Shown here piece by piece: positions 2,798 to 41,049 of a stretch of DNA of 43,206 nucleotides; position 1 is the first letter of the stretch, and each line of letters starts with the position of its first letter. The position numbers and the translations under genes are program-made. The notes under the pieces were generated by a model. It had not been told where the DNA came from, searched no databases, and was given only the letters and a program-made list of their open reading frames with translations. Source of the stretch: a virus; UHGV virus genome UHGV-1355782; one strand, given 5' to 3'.

Positions 2798-4273
2798 ATG
2801 TTAACTATGAACGGTCAGAATCAGGGTGTTAAGACAAAACACCGGGAATGGCTGCATCACTTCGATAAATGGCAGAAGGTACGCCACGCACTGGAAGGCG
2901 ACCTTATTCGCTATCTTCGCAACGTCGGGAAGAACGAACCGGACCCGGCCTACGCAGCACAGCGCCAGGAAGAATACGAGAACGGCGCTATCTGCTACAA
3001 CTTCACTAAGAGAACGCTGGCGGGGATGGTCGGGTCCGTAATGCGCAAAGACCCCGAGCAAATTATCCCGCCTGAACTGGAGTACCTGCTACGCAATGCC
3101 GATGGTTCCGGCGTCGGGCTGTGGCAGCACGCGCAGGATACGTTAATGGAGATTGACTCGGTGGGCCGTGGTGGGTTGCTGGTGGACGCCCCGGAGACGG
3201 CCGCGGCAACGGCGGCAGAGCAGAACGCGGGATTATTAAACCCGGTCATCGCATTCTACACCGCAGAGAACATCATCAACTGGCGGCTGACTCGCGTCGG
3301 TTCTGTTAACCGCGTGACGATGGTCGTGTTGCGTGAGGCATGGGAATACTCGGAACCTGGTGCAGAGTTTGAAACAAAGTTCGGCGAGCAGTATCGCGTT
3401 CTCGATTTGATTGACGGACGCTACCGCCAGCGCATTTACCGCTTCGATGCCGAAGGTGGTGCACAGGGCCAAGTAATCGAAATCTTCCCGGAACTTGGCG
3501 AACAGTTGCGCGGCAAAATCCCGTTCACGTTCATTGGGGCAAGCAACAACGATGCAACCATTGACGACGCACCTTTGCTGCCGTTGGCTGAACTTAATAT
3601 CGGGCATTTCCGTAATAGCGCGGACAATGAGGAGTCCAGCTTCGTTGTTGGGCAACCAACTCTGTTCATTGCCCCCGGCGATAACATGAGCATGGAGCAG
3701 TGGAAAGAAGCCAACCCGCACGGCGTGCGCATGGGGTCGCGTTCAGGCCATAACATCGGGTACGGCGGCAATGCGTTTCTGGTTCAGGCGGGAGAGAACA
3801 ACCTGGCTAAGCAGAATATGCTGGATAAGGAGAACCAGGCCATCCAGATTGGTGCTCAGCTTATCACCCCTACACAGCAAATCACCGCTGAATCGGCCCG
3901 CCTACAACGCGGCGCGGATACGTCCGTTATGGCAACAATCGCACGGAACGTAAGCATGGCGTACACCGATGCGTTGCGCTGGGCGGCGGCGATGCTTGGG
4001 CTACGTGAAGGCACAGAAATTGAGTTCAAGCTGAATATGGAGTTCTTCCTGCAACCGATGACTGCGCAAGACCGTGCTCAGTGGATGGCAGACATTAACG
4101 CAGGCCTGCTACCAGCTACCGCTTACTACGCGGCGTTGCGTAAGGCGGGGGTGACTGACTGGACCGACGAGGACATCCAGAATGCTATCGAGGATGCGCC
4201 TCTGCCGTTGGTTACACAGACTACCGGGGAGATTCCGGCTACAGCGCAGCAGGATGAAGAGGCGGAGCAATGA
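2798..4273 (+). CDS. portal protein
   Basis: 491 aa directly downstream of terL; RBS AAGAGGA; acidic C-terminal tail; synteny. Confidence 0.8.
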   Translation: MLTMNGQNQGVKTKHREWLHHFDKWQKVRHALEGDLIRYLRNVGKNEPDPAYAAQRQEEYENGAICYNFTKRTLAGMVGSVMRKDPEQIIPPELEYLLRNADGSGVGLWQHAQDTLMEIDSVGRGGLLVDAPETAAATAAEQNAGLLNPVIAFYTAENIINWRLTRVGSVNRVTMVVLREAWEYSEPGAEFETKFGEQYRVLDLIDGRYRQRIYRFDAEGGAQGQVIEIFPELGEQLRGKIPFTFIGASNNDATIDDAPLLPLAELNIGHFRNSADNEESSFVVGQPTLFIAPGDNMSMEQWKEANPHGVRMGSRSGHNIGYGGNAFLVQAGENNLAKQNMLDKENQAIQIGAQLITPTQQITAESARLQRGADTSVMATIARNVSMAYTDALRWAAAMLGLREGTEIEFKLNMEFFLQPMTAQDRAQWMADINAGLLPATAYYAALRKAGVTDWTDEDIQNAIEDAPLPLVTQTTGEIPATAQQDEEAEQ

Positions 4274-6098: not shown

Positions 6099-6125
6099 TT
6101 TCCATCTCCTGTTTAAGTTAACTGA

Positions 6126-6154
6126 ATAGTACCCTATTATATTGGTGTGTGCAA
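6126..6154 (-). promoter_or_regulatory. class-1 promoter TTGCAC-N17-TACTAT with embedded palindromic operator (6124-6139)
   Basis: minus-strand -35 TTGCAC, 17-bp spacer, -10 TACTAT; spacer carries TAATAG-N4-CTATTC; same element at 15189, 37750, 39057. Confidence 0.5.
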
Positions 6155-6220
6155 ACTATTTGTTTACGTATTCCTGTTATTCCACCTAATTGTAAATGTT
6201 GGAATAAACTATTCGAATAG

Positions 6221-6249
6221 TTGACTTTTCACTAAAAATGTGCTAAGCT
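6221..6249 (+). promoter_or_regulatory. strong sigma70-type promoter (TTGACT-N17-TGnTAAGCT) driving structured leader RNA copy A
   Basis: -35 TTGACT 6221-6226, extended -10 TG-c-TAAGCT 6242-6249; near-identical promoter at 37441. Confidence 0.55.
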
Positions 6250-6253
6250 CCAC

Positions 6254-6363
6254 CTGAGCTTGTGAAGTATGAACAAGCGACCGCGGCGCGGGCAGGTAAC
6301 GGAGCGGGACGTAAGTCCTGAGTGTAGTTACGCTGACGCGTTCGGAAGGGCCATAGTCTATTG
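6254..6363 (+). ncRNA. conserved promoter-proximal structured RNA element, copy A (candidate cis-acting leader or small RNA)
   Basis: no ORF; about 110 nt highly similar to 37473-37584; conserved stem GCTTGT/ACAAGC; hairpin GGGAC-gtaa-GTCCT replaced by GTGCC-atta-GGCAC in copy B. Confidence 0.35.
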
Positions 6364-6429
6364 CTTGTGTAAAAAGTAACTGGTTTACGGAGATTACGCC
6401 GTTTCTATGTTTAAATGATAAGGACTAGC

Positions 6430-6449
6430 GCCCCGCTTTAAGGCGGGGC
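6430..6449 (+). promoter_or_regulatory. GC-rich hairpin (weak intrinsic terminator/attenuator) between leader RNA and spanin RBS
   Basis: GCCCCGC-tttaag-GCGGGGC followed by short TTTACTT. Confidence 0.3.
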
Positions 6450-6473
6450 TTTACTTATCGAGAAAGGAGAAAC

Positions 6474-6860
6474 ATGAATCTTAAAGCAACTGTCGTAGCG
6501 GGAGCATGTTTCATCATCCTGGCCTACGCACACGGCATCTACCAGTATCGCAGCGGCTGGGGCGAAGGCCGCGCTAATCTCGTTTCGCAGCAACAGCAGA
6601 AAGCACAGGCTGAGTTAGCGAAGAAAACACAACGGCAGCAGCAGGACGAATCGAAGGCCGCAGCCGCTGACAACGAAGGCAAGACGAAATCGGAGGTGAT
6701 TACCCGTGAAGTCGTTAAGTACATTAAAACGCCTGGCCGCAGCGTGTGCACTTTCGACGATGCTCGCGTCCTGCTCAAGTCCCGCGCTGTCACCAACGCC
6801 AATTCCATCCCCGGATACGACGATGATGCAGCCGCCGTGCAAACTGGCGCTGCCAAGTAG
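6474..6860 (+). CDS. i-spanin (Rz-like)
   Basis: N-terminal TM segment LKATVVAGACFIILAYAHGIY, Q/A/E/K-rich coiled-coil periplasmic region; RBS AAAGGAG; o-spanin overlaps in another frame. Confidence 0.65.
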   Translation: MNLKATVVAGACFIILAYAHGIYQYRSGWGEGRANLVSQQQQKAQAELAKKTQRQQQDESKAAAADNEGKTKSEVITREVVKYIKTPGRSVCTFDDARVLLKSRAVTNANSIPGYDDDAAAVQTGAAK

Positions 6861-7754: not shown

Positions 7755-8804
7755 ATGGCAATTACCACTATCGGCGATATCGTAACTGGCAACATCCCGG
7801 TCCTGGCGTCTTACATGACCGAGGACCCGGTAGAAAAAACCGCGTTCTTCCAGTCCGGCATTCTGACCCCGACTCCGTACGCTGCCGAGATTGCCCGCGG
7901 CCCGTCCAACATCGCTAACATTCCTTTCTGGAAAGCGATTGATACCTCTATCGAGCCAAACTACTCGAACGACGTATACCAGGACATCGCAACCCCACGT
8001 AACGTGCAGACCAGTGAGATGATGGCGCGCGTAGCGTATCTGAACGAAGGATTCGGTCAGGCTGACCTGACTGTTGAACTGACCAGCCAGAACCCGCTGC
8101 AATCAGTAGCGTCCCGTCTGGATAACTTCTGGCAGCGCCAGGCACAACGCCGTCTGATTGCTACCGCGCTCGGCCTGTACAATGACAACGTAGCCGCTAC
8201 CGACGCATACCACGAGCAGAACGACATGGTAATTGACGTGTCCGCTACTCTTGGCTTCGACGCTGGAGCATTCATCGACGCTACCCAGACTATGGGCGAC
8301 GCACTGATGGGTAATGGTGGCGAAGTGCTCGGCGCTATCGCGATGCACAGCTTCGTTTATGCACAGGCGCGTAAACAGCAGCTTATCGACTTCATCAAAG
8401 ACGCTGACAACGACACCTTGTTCGCCACCTACCAGGGCTACCGCGTGATTGTTGACGACAGCATGACCGTAGTCGGTACTGGCCCGAGCCGTAAGTTCAT
8501 TTCCATCATCTTCGGTAACGGCGCTATCGGTTACGGCGAAGGTTCTCCGTCCAACCCGCTGGAATACGAGCGCGAAGCGTCTCGCGGCAACGGTGGTGGC
8601 GTTGAAACTTTGTGGACTCGCAAGACCTGGTTGCTGCATCCGTTTGGTTACAGCTTCACCAGCGCAGTAATCACCGGCAATGGCACCGAGACCGTAGCAC
8701 GCTCTGCTTCCTGGCAGGACCTGGCGAACGCCTCCAACTGGAACCGTGTGGTTGACCGTAAGCATGTACCGATTGCCTTCCTGGTAACTGGTGTAGGGGC
8801 TTAA
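7755..8804 (+). CDS. major capsid protein
   Basis: 349 aa after scaffold gene; RBS GAGGAAA; followed by strong terminator; synteny. Confidence 0.8.
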   Translation: MAITTIGDIVTGNIPVLASYMTEDPVEKTAFFQSGILTPTPYAAEIARGPSNIANIPFWKAIDTSIEPNYSNDVYQDIATPRNVQTSEMMARVAYLNEGFGQADLTVELTSQNPLQSVASRLDNFWQRQAQRRLIATALGLYNDNVAATDAYHEQNDMVIDVSATLGFDAGAFIDATQTMGDALMGNGGEVLGAIAMHSFVYAQARKQQLIDFIKDADNDTLFATYQGYRVIVDDSMTVVGTGPSRKFISIIFGNGAIGYGEGSPSNPLEYEREASRGNGGGVETLWTRKTWLLHPFGYSFTSAVITGNGTETVARSASWQDLANASNWNRVVDRKHVPIAFLVTGVGA

Positions 8805-8820
8805 GGTTAAGCTATAATCG

Positions 8821-8847
8821 AGAGGGACTTCGGTCCCTCTTTTCATT
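8821..8847 (+). terminator. rho-independent terminator after capsid gene
   Basis: AGAGGGAC-ttcg-GTCCCTCT followed by TTTCATTT. Confidence 0.65.
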
Positions 8848-15158: not shown

Positions 15159-15188
15159 TTTAAACCCCTTCATTGTTGGTGTAAGTGA

Positions 15189-15217
15189 ATAGTACCCTAT
15201 TATATTGGGGTGTGCAA
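15189..15217 (-). promoter_or_regulatory. class-1 promoter TTGCAC-N17-TACTAT with palindromic operator (15187-15202)
   Basis: near-identical to element at 6126-6154; directly upstream of antisense island. Confidence 0.5.
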
Positions 15218-15325
15218 GTAATGTGATAGAATAATTTTGCGCCTAGTGTCGCACACGAAAAGCGGGTGGTTCCCGTCTGGCGCATTTACCTTTAACCTGT
15301 AACCTCTTAACCAAAGGATTAAAGA

Positions 15326-15745: not shown

Positions 15746-15921
15746 ACGCGCTGTACAGGTTCGCCACCTACGAGTTTGTGGATAAGCATAAAATCAGAGA
15801 GTTTGATTCTATAGCTGACGGTCACGAGCAGGCGCTTATCGCGATGGGTGTAATCGATAAGAAAAAAACGTGCAGCGCGACGGGGTGGGCCAGAATGCCC
15901 GCCCCTTTTTATATCCACCTT
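15721..15921 (+). other. candidate -1 programmed frameshift extension (GT-like) of tail chaperone
   Basis: -1 frame is open from 15721 (after TGA 15718-15720) to stop at 15922-15924; putative slippery heptamer G GAA AAG at 15736-15742 just before the G stop codon. Confidence 0.3.
15882..15912 (+). terminator. rho-independent terminator-like hairpin between chaperone and tape measure genes
   Basis: GGGGTGGGC-cagaat-GCCCGCCCC followed by TTTTTAT. Confidence 0.5.
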
Positions 15922-27058: not shown

Positions 27059-27346
27059 CTAACTATAATAGTTCGCTATTAGGTCGTCAACCTGTTTAAA
27101 CGAACCAACGACAAAAACATTTGCTCCACGTTTACGCATCCGCTCGTGCTCTCGTAGCTGGTGTGGGTCTGGCTTCGTGTTTTCGTCTTTCTTAACCTCG
27201 ACGAACCAGATGATGCCGCCGGGGAGAATTACCAGCAGGTCAGGAGCGCCCGCTCTATTTTCGTACGACAATTTGCGTACGAGGCCGCCGATAGCCTCGA
27301 ATCGCTCTTTTGCGTATTTCTGGATGCGCCCCTCAGGCGTACTCAT
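27059..27346 (-). CDS. VRR-NUC domain nuclease
   Basis: PD-(D/E)XK-type motif GAPDLLVILPGGIIWFVEVKK; C-terminus ...IANYYS encoded by the promoter/operator repeat. Confidence 0.65.
   Translation of the reverse strand: MSTPEGRIQKYAKERFEAIGGLVRKLSYENRAGAPDLLVILPGGIIWFVEVKKDENTKPDPHQLREHERMRKRGANVFVVGSFKQVDDLIANYYS
27062..27090 (-). promoter_or_regulatory. class-2 promoter TTGACG-N17-TATAGT with palindromic operator (27066-27081)
   Basis: minus-strand -35 TTGACG, 17-bp spacer containing TAATAG-cgaa-CTATTA, -10 TATAGT; lies inside the 3' end of the VRR-NUC gene. Confidence 0.5.
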
Positions 27347-30960: not shown

Positions 30961-31461
30961 TTAACTATAATAGTTCGCTATTCGGTAGTCAACTTCTTTT
31001 AGCAAATTACTTTCAAAATTCTTTCTCGCCACGTTAGCCTGTTCAGGAGTTTCGAATAGTCCAAGGTAACGATATTGCCCGTTTACGGTAATTCCAGCCT
31101 GCCATTTACCATGGCTTTTGCGCCAAAACACGCCAGTGTACCCGCTTTTGTTATGACTTCTTCCGGTTTGAATGCCGCCTTTAGCCACATTATCGCTATG
31201 AGCGATTAACTGGAGATTCTCTATCCTGTCATCATTTCTTATCGCATTTATATGGTCCACCTCAAACCCTTCAGGTATAGGGCCGTTGTGGTACTCCCAT
31301 ATTAAACGGCTTCTTTGGTAGGACTTACGATTAATGTAGATCTGCACATACCCTGAATGGTGGAGGCTTCCTGCCTCCTGACCAGCTAACATTCTTTTTG
31401 TATTGTGGCGATAGATTAGTTTCCCGTTTTCATAAATGAAACGCTCCCGAACTAAACTCAT
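30961..31461 (-). CDS. HNH homing endonuclease with AP2-like domain
   Basis: HNH motif DHINAIRNDDRIENLQL, AP2-like GYTGVFWRKSHGKWQAGI; ATGA-coupled start at 31461; C-terminus ...IANYYS. Confidence 0.7.
   Translation of the reverse strand: MSLVRERFIYENGKLIYRHNTKRMLAGQEAGSLHHSGYVQIYINRKSYQRSRLIWEYHNGPIPEGFEVDHINAIRNDDRIENLQLIAHSDNVAKGGIQTGRSHNKSGYTGVFWRKSHGKWQAGITVNGQYRYLGLFETPEQANVARKNFESNLLKEVDYRIANYYS
30964..30992 (-). promoter_or_regulatory. class-2 promoter TTGACT-N17-TATAGT with palindromic operator (30968-30983)
   Basis: same architecture as 27062-27090; lies inside the 3' end of the HNH gene 30961-31461. Confidence 0.5.
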
Positions 31462-34034: not shown

Positions 34035-34064
34035 ACTATAATAGCGAACTATTCATGTTGTCAA
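34035..34064 (-). promoter_or_regulatory. class-2 promoter TTGACA-N18-TATAGT with palindromic operator (34039-34054), leftward early promoter
   Basis: minus-strand consensus -35 TTGACA; operator TAATAG-cgaa-CTATTC in spacer. Confidence 0.55.
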
Positions 34065-37333: not shown

Positions 37334-37440
37334 ATTTCGCGCTCTCCTGTGTAAGATGTATCGAAGTATAAGGCGGTAACTTTGTAAAAGCAACCAAAAC
37401 ACCACACAAAGTTACTAAGATGCAAAAGATGCTACTAGTA

Positions 37441-37469
37441 TTGACTTTTACTTAAAAATATGCTAAGCT
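37441..37469 (+). promoter_or_regulatory. strong sigma70-type promoter (TTGACT-N17-TGnTAAGCT) driving structured leader RNA copy B
   Basis: -35 TTGACT 37441-37446; extended -10 TG-c-TAAGCT 37461-37469; matches promoter at 6221. Confidence 0.55.
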
Positions 37470-37472
37470 TCA

Positions 37473-37584
37473 CTGAGCTTGTGAGATATCGCAAGCGACC
37501 GCGGAGCGGCAGGGAACGCAACGCGTGCCATTAGGCACTTGAGTGTAGTTCCGCTGACGCTTTCGGAAGGGTCAAAGTCTATTG
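37473..37584 (+). ncRNA. conserved promoter-proximal structured RNA element, copy B
   Basis: non-coding; aligns with 6254-6363 with compensatory hairpin change; followed by GC hairpin GGGGTGGGC-taac-GCCCACCC at 37670-37690. Confidence 0.35.
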
Positions 37585-37749
37585 TTAATCCCGCCTAAAT
37601 ATCCAAGTCACTGATAATTAAAAGTTTCTATAGTTGCCGTGAGCAAGGTAGAGAGTACTTCACTCCGCTGGGGTGGGCTAACGCCCACCCACTGCGTTGC
37701 GTACTCTTTTAAGAAACGAAAGAATCACAACGGCAACGTAACTATTCTC

Positions 37750-37779
37750 TTGCGCACCCCAACCATAATAGGATACTAT
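37750..37779 (+). promoter_or_regulatory. class-1 promoter TTGCGC-N18-TACTAT with palindromic operator (37766-37781)
   Basis: upstream of first rightward small gene. Confidence 0.45.
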
Positions 37780-37813
37780 TCACTTATTGGAACGAGACAG
37801 AGGAGTGAGGGTT

Positions 37814-38753: not shown

Positions 38754-38787
38754 CAGGTCAATAGTTTACTATTTGGCTTTGTGACTT

Positions 38788-38816
38788 ACGCTGCTACACA
38801 GCAGCGTATCATTTTT
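38788..38816 (+). terminator. rho-independent terminator
   Basis: ACGCTGCT-acac-AGCAGCGT followed by T-rich ATCATTTTTCTCATTTTT. Confidence 0.6.
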
Positions 38817-39056: not shown

Positions 39057-39085
39057 TTGCATGCTAAGATAGAATAGGCTACTAT
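39057..39085 (+). promoter_or_regulatory. class-1 promoter TTGCAT-N17-TACTAT with palindromic operator (39072-39087)
   Basis: fourth copy of the TTGCAY/TACTAT element. Confidence 0.45.
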
Positions 39086-39116
39086 TCATTTACACAAACG
39101 AGAGGAGAGACGGAAG

Positions 39117-40335: not shown

Positions 40336-40612
40336 CATCCTGAAGCGAAGCGGCCTTGTGCCGCTGTCGCCGAGAGCTAAAACACGAATATACAAGCGCC
40401 GCCGTAATGCGCTGTACCCCGAGATTCAGGCCAGACGCAAAGCTGTCCGTGCCTGCGGATTCCAGAACGGGAAGGCCGTGAATCTCGGTGAGTTTAAAAC
40501 AAAGGAACGCGCAGCAATCGCTAATCGGCTATTTAAATACTGGAAATCGCTGGGATATGAAGATATTCCGACGAAACCGCAGAGACGACAATACATCTGG
40601 AGACATAAATGA
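40319..40612 (+). CDS. hypothetical basic protein
   Basis: ATG 40319 6 nt after RBS GGAGG; Arg/Lys-rich. Confidence 0.45.
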   Translation: MSLATDILKRSGLVPLSPRAKTRIYKRRRNALYPEIQARRKAVRACGFQNGKAVNLGEFKTKERAAIANRLFKYWKSLGYEDIPTKPQRRQYIWRHK

Positions 40613-41049
40613 CTACTATCGCGTTTGACGGAAAGACGATGGCATGTGACACCCGTGTTGTGAGTGGAAGTAACTATTACAACACAGACACAAAGATATA
40701 TGAGAACGAATTTGTTGTTATCGGGGTGGCTGGTGATGCTGGGGTTGGAATCCTTTTAGTGAAGGACGATAGTATTTTAGTGCCTAAGCATTATGATTTT
40801 GATTTCTCTGCTTTGGTGTGGGTTAAAGACATCGAAACGTTGTGTAAGGTGGAGTTCTACAAATCATGGGATTGTGAGCTTAGTTCGGTTATTCCGATCG
40901 CAGACGGCTTTGCCGCCGTCGGCTCCGGTGCGCCTTATGCGCTAGCGGCTATGGAATGCGGGTATTCTGCACATGGTGGCGTAGCTGTGGCGTCGAAGTT
41001 TAACACTGACACAGGTGGCAAGATTATTACCAAACAACTATTAGGATAA
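40609..41049 (+). CDS. HslV/proteasome beta-subunit-like Ntn-hydrolase peptidase
   Basis: N-terminus MTTIAFDG with Thr after Met as in HslV MTTIVSV; GSGAPYALAAMECG resembles HslV GSGGPYAQAAARAL; recalled family resemblance, not a search. Confidence 0.55.
   Translation: MTTIAFDGKTMACDTRVVSGSNYYNTDTKIYENEFVVIGVAGDAGVGILLVKDDSILVPKHYDFDFSALVWVKDIETLCKVEFYKSWDCELSSVIPIADGFAAVGSGAPYALAAMECGYSAHGGVAVASKFNTDTGGKIITKQLLG

Follow-up and report, generated by a model that had tools for sequence, protein, structure and literature searches.

A structured 5' leader RNA heading two operons of a Kagunavirus-like phage

We describe a structured RNA element of about 110 nt at the head of two transcription units of a phage genome, and we conclude with high confidence that it belongs to a family of structured 5' leader RNAs of Guernseyvirinae that had not been described before. 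The window, by which we mean the whole stretch of DNA analysed (43,206 nucleotides; virus genome UHGV-1355782), is the genome of a ~43-kb Kagunavirus-like siphophage of E. coli from this subfamily, and a 1-kb query around 37441-37690 matched 235 phage records, for the most part of Escherichia Kagunavirus and of phages of Salmonella. Few E. coli and Salmonella phages are isolated as often as Guernseyvirinae, which are used in therapy and food safety; to our knowledge, nothing is known about the control of their late genes. Literature searches returned no description of this leader, and promoters and terminators are not mentioned in the sole Kagunavirus transcriptome paper that was found. A structured, cis-acting phage leader RNA is familiar as a kind, while as a family the present one appears undescribed and unrelated to the put (polymerase-utilisation) RNAs of phage HK022, which have also been reported in HK639 and some prophages. 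As to its role, we tentatively favour, by analogy with put, a nascent-RNA element that would act in cis on RNA polymerase and promote read-through.

Two promoter-leader copies and their fold

An earlier note on this DNA had reported a second copy of a promoter and an element of about 112 nt, on the same strand, with the element at 37473-37584, and these coordinates proved accurate. Promoter P_B (37441-37469, plus strand) consists of the -35 hexamer TTGACT (37441-37446), a 17-nt spacer with TG at its end (37461-37462), and TAAGCT (37464-37469), giving an extended -10 of the form TG(C)TAAGCT and a predicted start site at ~37475-37476. Its twin P_A (6221-6249, plus strand) has the same TTGACT, 17-nt spacer and TG(C)TAAGCT, and the 29-nt promoter pattern occurs twice in the window (6221 and 37441) against 0 expected occurrences. 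Promoters of the P_B type are kept in relatives. Because TAAGCT matches the -10 hexamer at only 3 of 6 positions, neither P_A nor P_B was listed by a simple sigma-70 scanner; a -35 close to consensus, a spacing of 17 nt and the TG of an extended -10 nevertheless lead us to infer that both are host sigma-70-type promoters. The two loci align from the promoter to ~37584 and ~6363. A covariance model built here from the leader RNA element (R1), which was used to count copies in the window and in relatives, matched exactly twice in the window, at copy A (6254-6364; 139 bits) and at copy B (37473-37585; 91 bits, E=1e-21). Both matches are on the plus strand, which is also the strand of the genes behind them.

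Single-sequence folding gave the same architecture for both copies: a short P1 hairpin begins 2-4 nt past the predicted start and is joined by a linker of 2 nt to a long irregular hairpin (SL2), after which comes a single-stranded tail. In copy B, on the plus strand, P1 is formed by the pairing of 37477-37483 with 37490-37496, and SL2 (37499-37566) comprises P2, P3, P4 and an apical P5 (37525-37538), with the conserved internal loop GCAAC / UUGAGUGUA within it; the tail (37567-37584) reads AAGGGUCAAAGUCUAUUG. The minimum free energy of copy B is -45.2 kcal/mol (z=-3.1). Between the two copies the apical hairpin differs in a compensatory manner, being GGGAC-GUAA-GUCC in copy A and GUGCC-AUUA-GGCAC in copy B.

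Relatives of the element were gathered from IMG/VR, metagenomes and GenBank, which resulted in 43 distinct sequences, and R1 gave 68 matches in 64 related loci. In the R1 alignment of these 68 copies, standard pairs made up 97.5% of the pair cells, changes on both sides were present at 8 pairs (66 cells), and none of 500 shuffles reached the observed covariation score. When the 3' partners were slid by 1-3 columns, pairing went down to 33-45% and the covariation was almost gone. Since the R1 alignment is fitted to the model and favours structure, a plain MAFFT alignment served as a second view. There, one P2 pair was seen as C-G, U-A and A-U, one P4 pair was seen as U-A, A-U and G-C, and variation was present at every P5 pair. 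The fold is therefore real, and the earlier claim of a structured RNA is confirmed. Moreover, copy B is not identical among its relatives, as a recent duplication free of structural constraint could have been, but varies, and does so in a compensatory way. Across types, the internal loop of the element is asymmetric, with the form GRAGC / U(G)AGYGUA, and the tail has the form AAGGGCC...CUAUUG.

Several further features of the element were considered. A small protein encoded within it was rejected, as the 36-codon ORF of copy A (ATG at 6270) lacks that ATG in copy B and its frame is disrupted by 1-nt indels in related loci L007, L013 and L028; an ORF annotated over the leader of Jerseyviruses is likewise disrupted by indels. 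Because indels break its only ORF, the element is noncoding. A pseudoknot in which the 3' side of the internal loop (GAGU / UAGC) would pair with the tail (ACUC / GCUA) seemed compensatory when Kagunavirus and Jerseyvirus types were compared, but was ruled out since the middle tail position can be C, G, U or A while its partner is constant. A kissing interaction of the P1 loop with the tail likewise had no covariation support. When folding was simulated stepwise, a local hairpin, CCGC-GGC-GCGG, formed first and was displaced by P2 after the 3' strand had been made. One variant retains this local hairpin (CCGC-GGN-GCGG) through a double change (CCGU...ACGG), and the hairpin may, on the simulated pathway, be a selected folding intermediate.

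The element did not correspond to known RNA families. Over the whole window, Rfam 15 gave no match at gathering thresholds and only chance-level hits at E<=10, none of them within the element, and ARAGORN found no tRNA or tmRNA. A second covariance model (R2), derived from the putL and putR sequences of HK022, finds both of these sites again (96 and 91 bits) and had no match at 6254-6364 or 37473-37585; its sole match in the window (3552-3619, minus strand, E=1.7) is at chance level.

Distribution and history of the two copies

By blastn, the copy A element was found in 181 phage records, including Salmonella Jerseyviruses, with at least 95% identity in 167 of the 181. Salmonella phage SETP13 shares 75% mean identity with the source genome in aligned parts. 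The noncoding region 6106-6465, which spans a divergent promoter, P_A, the element, the spacer and a hairpin, is 90-100% identical between the two, and the copy A element itself is 98-100% identical, compared with 68-85% for the neighbouring genes. The 181 records contain 224 places, so that ~43 records carry a second copy, and copy B is confined to ~43 Kagunavirus records. Its P1 and promoter are those of copy A in the Kagunavirus form, and it occurs in several subtypes that differ in SL2. Judged from these comparisons, copy A is the ancestral locus, near-invariant and present throughout Kagunavirus and, in diverged form, in Jerseyvirus. Copy B is read as a later duplicate within Kagunavirus that subsequently diverged under structural constraint. 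The earlier view of two copies of one leader thus holds insofar as both head same-strand units, but the two are not equivalent, B being an optional duplicate in a subset of Kagunavirus.

At the B locus of SETP13 the element is absent and other sequence is found, with a hairpin still present. This equivalent of the B locus (L003:35930-36380) has a promoter-like TTGACA-N17-TAAGTT and a leader that is rich in hairpins but different, and ahead of an operator-type promoter there is again a stable hairpin, GCACUUGCC-UUAC-GGCAAGCGC; the B locus appears to accept alternative promoter and leader cassettes. In one metagenomic contig (QZLR01000080.1; L101:417 and L102:1662), one P1-loop substitution, GAAGUAUGA to GAGGUAUGA, is common to the two copies and was not seen elsewhere among the collected sequences. 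Such a shared change points to gene conversion or to co-evolution of the two copies with a trans factor.

Because the scaffold protein is present in 496 records, Jerseyviruses at first seemed to be mostly without the element. With filters off, however, R1 detected a diverged copy upstream of Rz in phage AG11 (39.6 bits, E=7e-9), and this diverged Jerseyvirus form was found in 269 records at the same place as copy A. Its promoter is similar (TAGACT, 17 nt, TG-T-TACGCT). Its P1 (ACGCU-UUC-AGCGU) and the middle helix that replaces P3/P4 (CGCGU / ACCGCG) are different, while P2 (CCG.GGUGCG / CGCAUUCGG), the internal loop (GAAGC / UAGCGUA versus GGAGC / UGAGUGUA) and the tail (AAGGGCC..CUAUAUUGC) are kept. 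Jerseyvirus variants contain more compensatory changes, such as P5 U-A to C-G, and in L120 the internal loop is closed up. A third covariance model, meant to cover the Kagunavirus and the Jerseyvirus type together, was dropped, because MAFFT set the apical parts out of register. Compared across types, the architecture, P2, the asymmetric internal loop and the tail come out as constant, and the sequences of P1, P3/P4 and P5 as free. A more distant leader stands at the same place in Salmonella phage TS6 (L109:250-580), with a shared 5' hairpin, GUAA-capped hairpin and tail GGGGAUAGUCUAUUC; upstream of Rz/scaffold, this TS6 leader shares only short motifs, including the tail GAUAGUCUAUUC. Serratia phage Otaku (L110:1100-1230) has another structured leader upstream of Rz/scaffold, with the shared motif CAUUCGGAAAG. 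The leader family may be broader than R1 detects.

These comparisons also bear on the possibility that the element has no function at the RNA level, being either a duplication of recent date or a signal in the DNA (an operator or a recombination linker, for instance). The tail does contain CTATT, the half-site of a palindrome (AATAG-N4-CTATT) discussed below, and copy A is near-invariant at a gene-module junction, where frequent recombination could yield the same result. This explanation fails, however, to account for compensatory helix changes and for whole helices being swapped with pairing kept, and both the strand and the position relative to the promoter are constant. We consider it extremely unlikely.

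Hairpins and further signals in the two operons

Unit A, behind copy A, is the Rz/scaffold/capsid/neck operon, and unit B, behind copy B, contains small genes, an HslV-like peptidase, lysis genes and terminase. Of the unit B genes given in the earlier note, the HslV-family peptidase (40609-41049) was confirmed and the lysis genes were assigned by synteny with SETP13, and the small genes, called early in the note, can be taken only as putatively early. The proposal that copy B heads this unit needs qualification. A second promoter of an operator-bearing class (37750-37780, plus strand; TTGCGC, 18-nt spacer, TACTAT, with the palindrome AATAGGATACTATT over the -10) lies between the hairpin at 37670-37690 and the first gene (ATG 37814), and copy B is therefore not the sole head of unit B.

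The palindrome AATAG-N4-CTATT has eight perfect copies in the window (6125-6138, 15188-15201, 27067-27080, 30969-30982, 34040-34053, 37767-37780, 38760-38773 and 39073-39086), against ~1 expected. Most of these overlap the -10 of sigma-70-like promoters on either strand (e.g. TTGCAC-N17-TACTAT). From this arrangement, the sites would seem to mark a further class of promoter, one into which an operator for a regulator of the phage, perhaps the early HTH protein, is built. A different palindrome, GAATA-AAC-TATTC at 6202-6220, is located just upstream of the P_A -35 and overlaps CTATTCGAATAG. In the Jerseyvirus leader (L108:761-773), GAATA-N3-TATTC is equally 6 nt from the -35, and there is no equivalent at copy B; the palindrome may serve to bind an activator or a repressor at the A promoter alone. 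Upstream of P_B, a 10-bp inverted repeat (37376-37385 / 37406-37415; GTAACTTTGT ... ACAAAGTTAC) sits where the promoter of the leftward early HTH gene is expected (~TTGCTT-N17-TATACT, minus strand).

Terminator-like sites are present inside the operons (8820-8841 and 38787-38808) as well as at the ends of transcription units (5790 and 12899). The site at 8820-8841 is a strong terminator-like hairpin with a UUCG loop and a T-run, which directly follows the major capsid gene (7755-8804) within unit A and precedes the neck and tail-terminator genes. The tail operon (15326 onward) has, in the region 15220-15325, its own promoter (~TGATAGAAT, extended -10) and a leader with a different GC-rich hairpin, GCGCC...GGCGC; the leader element is absent from this operon head.

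Both leaders run 65-85 nt beyond the element to a stable hairpin. In the B leader, this is the hairpin at 37670-37690 (plus strand) to which the earlier note had drawn attention, GGGGTGGGC-TAAC-GCCCACCC, or GGGGUGGGC-UAAC-GCCCACCC as RNA, with a free energy of -22.6 kcal/mol in context (z=-3.2). Its presence and stability were borne out, but as a canonical terminator it did not hold up: it is followed by ACTGCGTTGCG without a U-run, and the terminator scan did not call it. Of the parts of an intrinsic terminator, it has the stem, and its tail (ACUGCGUUGCG) lacks the U-run. Relatives carry at this position either the same hairpin or an unrelated one, GGUGCC-UUC-GGCACC, with a U-richer tail. The 9-mer GGGGTGGGC, which had been linked to a terminator hairpin elsewhere in the window, does recur at 15882 (2 copies versus 0.19 expected). 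As many copies arise in 3 of 100 shuffles, and the right arms are not alike, so that the sharing is probably due to chance. Just 5' of the B-leader hairpin, a (CTCA)n run of variable length was found in relatives L042, L044 and L047 (~70-100 nt past the element) and at 37645-37660 in the window; other relatives (L015) have complement-like GAGT repeats.

The A-leader hairpin (6430-6449, plus strand), GCCCCGC-UUUAA-GGCGGGGC followed by UUUACUUAU, is weakly terminator-like and passes a loose terminator scan with UUUACUUAUC. It ends 14 nt ahead of the Shine-Dalgarno sequence of the first gene, an Rz-like spanin (6474-6860). The Jerseyvirus hairpin has the same 14-nt spacing and another sequence, GCCCGGC-UUAC-GCCGGGC followed by UUAGCG, and it occurs in compensatory variants with UUCG or GUAA loops. 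Since the U-runs are poor (UUUACUU in copy A, none in copy B, UUAGCG in Jerseyvirus), the leader hairpins are at best weak terminators, and they may be no terminators at all. Two further readings were rejected. Leader-peptide attenuation would depend on a mini-ORF, AUGUUUAAAUGA, before the copy A hairpin, the AUG of which is lost in several Jerseyvirus variants; copy B does not have the mini-ORF. Riboswitch-like switching between the element and the downstream hairpin was dismissed because the two are 65-85 nt apart and conserved complementarity was not found.

The nearest rival to read-through is a leader for mRNA stability and processing, a reading we regard as somewhat unlikely. P1 and the compact SL2 would keep RppH and RNase E away from the 5' end, a cut in the spacer or in the A/U-rich tail would then produce an mRNA that starts with a stable hairpin 14 nt upstream of the ribosome-binding site, and the outcome would be long-lived messages for abundant head proteins. 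The position of P1, 2-4 nt from the predicted 5' end in every type with its sequence free, is consistent with this, and so is the second hairpin, which is fixed at 14 nt from the Shine-Dalgarno sequence in Kagunavirus and Jerseyvirus A leaders, covaries, and combines stable tetraloops (UUCG, GUAA) with poor U-runs; the element, moreover, heads the operon of the most abundant proteins. The layout is also like that of the ompA leader and the T7 RNase III hairpins, with a 5'-terminal hairpin, a second hairpin by the ribosome-binding site, and a long irregular hairpin with an internal loop. Those elements, however, tolerate wide change in their unpaired parts, whereas the loops and tail of the present leader are strict, and its helices, unlike theirs, are GC-rich. 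Stabilisation leaves unexplained why the unpaired GRAGC / UAGYGUA and the tail are strictly conserved across diverged types, and why identity is 98-100% over the whole leader. The copy B hairpin is followed by a promoter and not by a ribosome-binding site, and SL2 is very GC-rich, which, in view of RNase III antideterminants, sets it apart from known RNase III sites.

A promoter, a structured RNA and a stable hairpin are, taken together, the layout of a self-contained small gene, and some phage late-promoter leader transcripts act in trans. The leader could accordingly be a trans-acting small RNA of ~110-200 nt, ending at or cut before the downstream hairpin, with host or phage targets, and its very high conservation would fit such a role. 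A U-run for a terminator-type, Hfq-binding 3' end is absent, however, no homologues of the element or obvious targets were found in 5,426 complete E. coli genomes, and the element is always directly 5' of an operon in the same orientation. We deem this reading very unlikely.

Possible action of the leader on RNA polymerase

The presence of the same leader ahead of two same-strand units had been taken to suggest a shared cis-regulatory mechanism. A shared cis-acting role is indeed the natural reading of a structured RNA that heads both units, with the reservation that the copies are of unequal standing. The closest known system is HK022 putL/putR, with two copies per genome, each just past a host-type promoter and heading a terminator-containing operon, and with a two-hairpin RNA that has conserved bulges and loops. 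As expected for a put-type element, two adjacent stem-loops (P1 and SL2) directly follow the predicted start, and terminator-like sites are found downstream. The put RNAs themselves suppress termination and pausing in cis, need no further factor for this, and depend on the zinc-binding domain of beta'. Both systems operate in an enterobacterial host with no recognisable phage antiterminator protein. The differences are considerable: there is no homology in sequence or structure, R2 being blank at both copies; the leader is ~110 nt long versus ~72 nt for put, its first hairpin being short and its second much longer; its phage is virulent and non-lambdoid; and its copies are in direct orientation, while those of put are in opposite orientation.

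A second comparison concerns the PR'-6S RNA-tR' region of lambda with Q, and Pseudomonas AlpA. Here too, a late operon for lysis and structural proteins stands behind a promoter, a ~200-nt leader and a hairpin, and the first downstream genes are lysis genes (in our case Rz/Rz1 after copy A, and holin and endolysin further down unit B). In the Q/AlpA systems, the signal consists of promoter DNA and a sigma-dependent pause, and leader RNA structure is not required. The present leader differs in that its RNA fold is conserved while the initially transcribed sequence is wholly different between the Kagunavirus and Jerseyvirus forms. The promoter-proximal, -10-like pause element NANNAT is matched by AAGTAT in most Kagunavirus-type copies and is not matched by AGATAT in copy B or by the Jerseyvirus ACATACGCTTTC... 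sequence. No Q- or AlpA-like protein was found among 30 small ORFs and the early HTH protein. The 30 ORFs, taken from the small-gene blocks flanking both leaders as a part of the small ORFs in the window, gave no match to Q, N or other known antiterminators in Pfam and PHROG. The early leftward HTH protein (56 aa) has an HTH_17/excisionase-type winged helix with the HTH at its N-terminus, and an AlpA-like role for it was rejected, as it matched neither Phage_AlpA nor any antiterminator sequence in the PDB. Of the parts of a lambda N/nut site, inspection of the two copies and of their relatives showed neither a boxA (CGCUCUUA-like) nor a boxB hairpin with a GNRA-like pentaloop. An RfaH ops site was also rejected: GAGTGTAGTT has only GTAG in common with GGCGGTAG, and it is absent in other subtypes.

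These searches bear on a further alternative, in which the leader is a putative binding site for a host protein, or for an unrecognised phage protein, that regulates the operon, either as a nut-like site for a factor-dependent antiterminator or as an operator for a repressor of elongation or translation. Conserved unpaired motifs in a covarying scaffold would be in line with such a site, as would the UCUAU motif that is repeated in the tail and spacer. The identical P1-loop change in both copies of one metagenomic phage (L101/L102) points in the same direction, although gene conversion fits too. Many small ORFs have no assigned function and could be candidates, and late-gene timing would need a factor if the promoters are constitutive. 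On the other hand, the scanned small ORFs yielded no candidate protein, boxA and boxB were not seen, and the early HTH protein is Xis/HTH_17-like without detectable similarity to AlpA or to antiterminators of solved structure. Copy A is, furthermore, almost invariant between phages whose proteins differ by 15-30%. We judge a protein-binding site to be unlikely.

For direct action on RNA polymerase, the following course of events can be proposed. The RNA would fold on leaving RNA polymerase and act in cis on the very elongation complex that makes it, with or without the help of a factor from host or phage. This complex would then pass the stable leader hairpin (6430-6449 or 37670-37690) and the intra-operon terminators (8820-8841; 38787-38808), and only transcripts begun at P_A or P_B would efficiently reach the distal head and lysis genes. 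The logic would be that of HK022 putL/putR, with an unrelated RNA. We arrived at this reading because of the two-copy, operon-heading layout, the conserved loops on a variable scaffold, the enterobacterial host, and the lack of a recognisable antiterminator protein. Conserved unpaired loops are expected of contact surfaces according to a structural description of put (PMC9378689). Terminator-like sites lie downstream in both units, and the leader is conserved far more than the surrounding coding DNA, both of which favour read-through.

Other observations argue against it. The leader hairpins are without good U-runs, and the B operon works without the element in most relatives. SETP13 has kept a hairpin at its B locus although the element is absent there, and R2, the put model, has no match to either copy. 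The whole ~215-nt A leader is conserved, and not the 110-nt element alone, which suggests further or different functions. A terminator right after a capsid gene usually lowers downstream expression, and full antitermination would defeat that. Because the tail operon has its own, different promoter and leader, the element is no general late-gene requirement. The more specific proposal, that the leader is a candidate for a second class of nascent RNA, unrelated to put in structure, which alone would make E. coli or Salmonella RNA polymerase terminator-resistant and would drive the head and lysis operons of a large group of virulent siphophages (Kagunavirus, Jerseyvirus), is one that we regard as improbable.

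Whatever its mode of action, the leader is the best-conserved noncoding sequence seen in these phages, above the capsid gene. Should RNA polymerase be its target, the leader would join a single kind of self-sufficient antiterminator RNA known so far, and would provide a compact, portable part for synthetic E. coli operons. If it is a stabiliser or a protein-binding site, it would still define the control point of the head operon.
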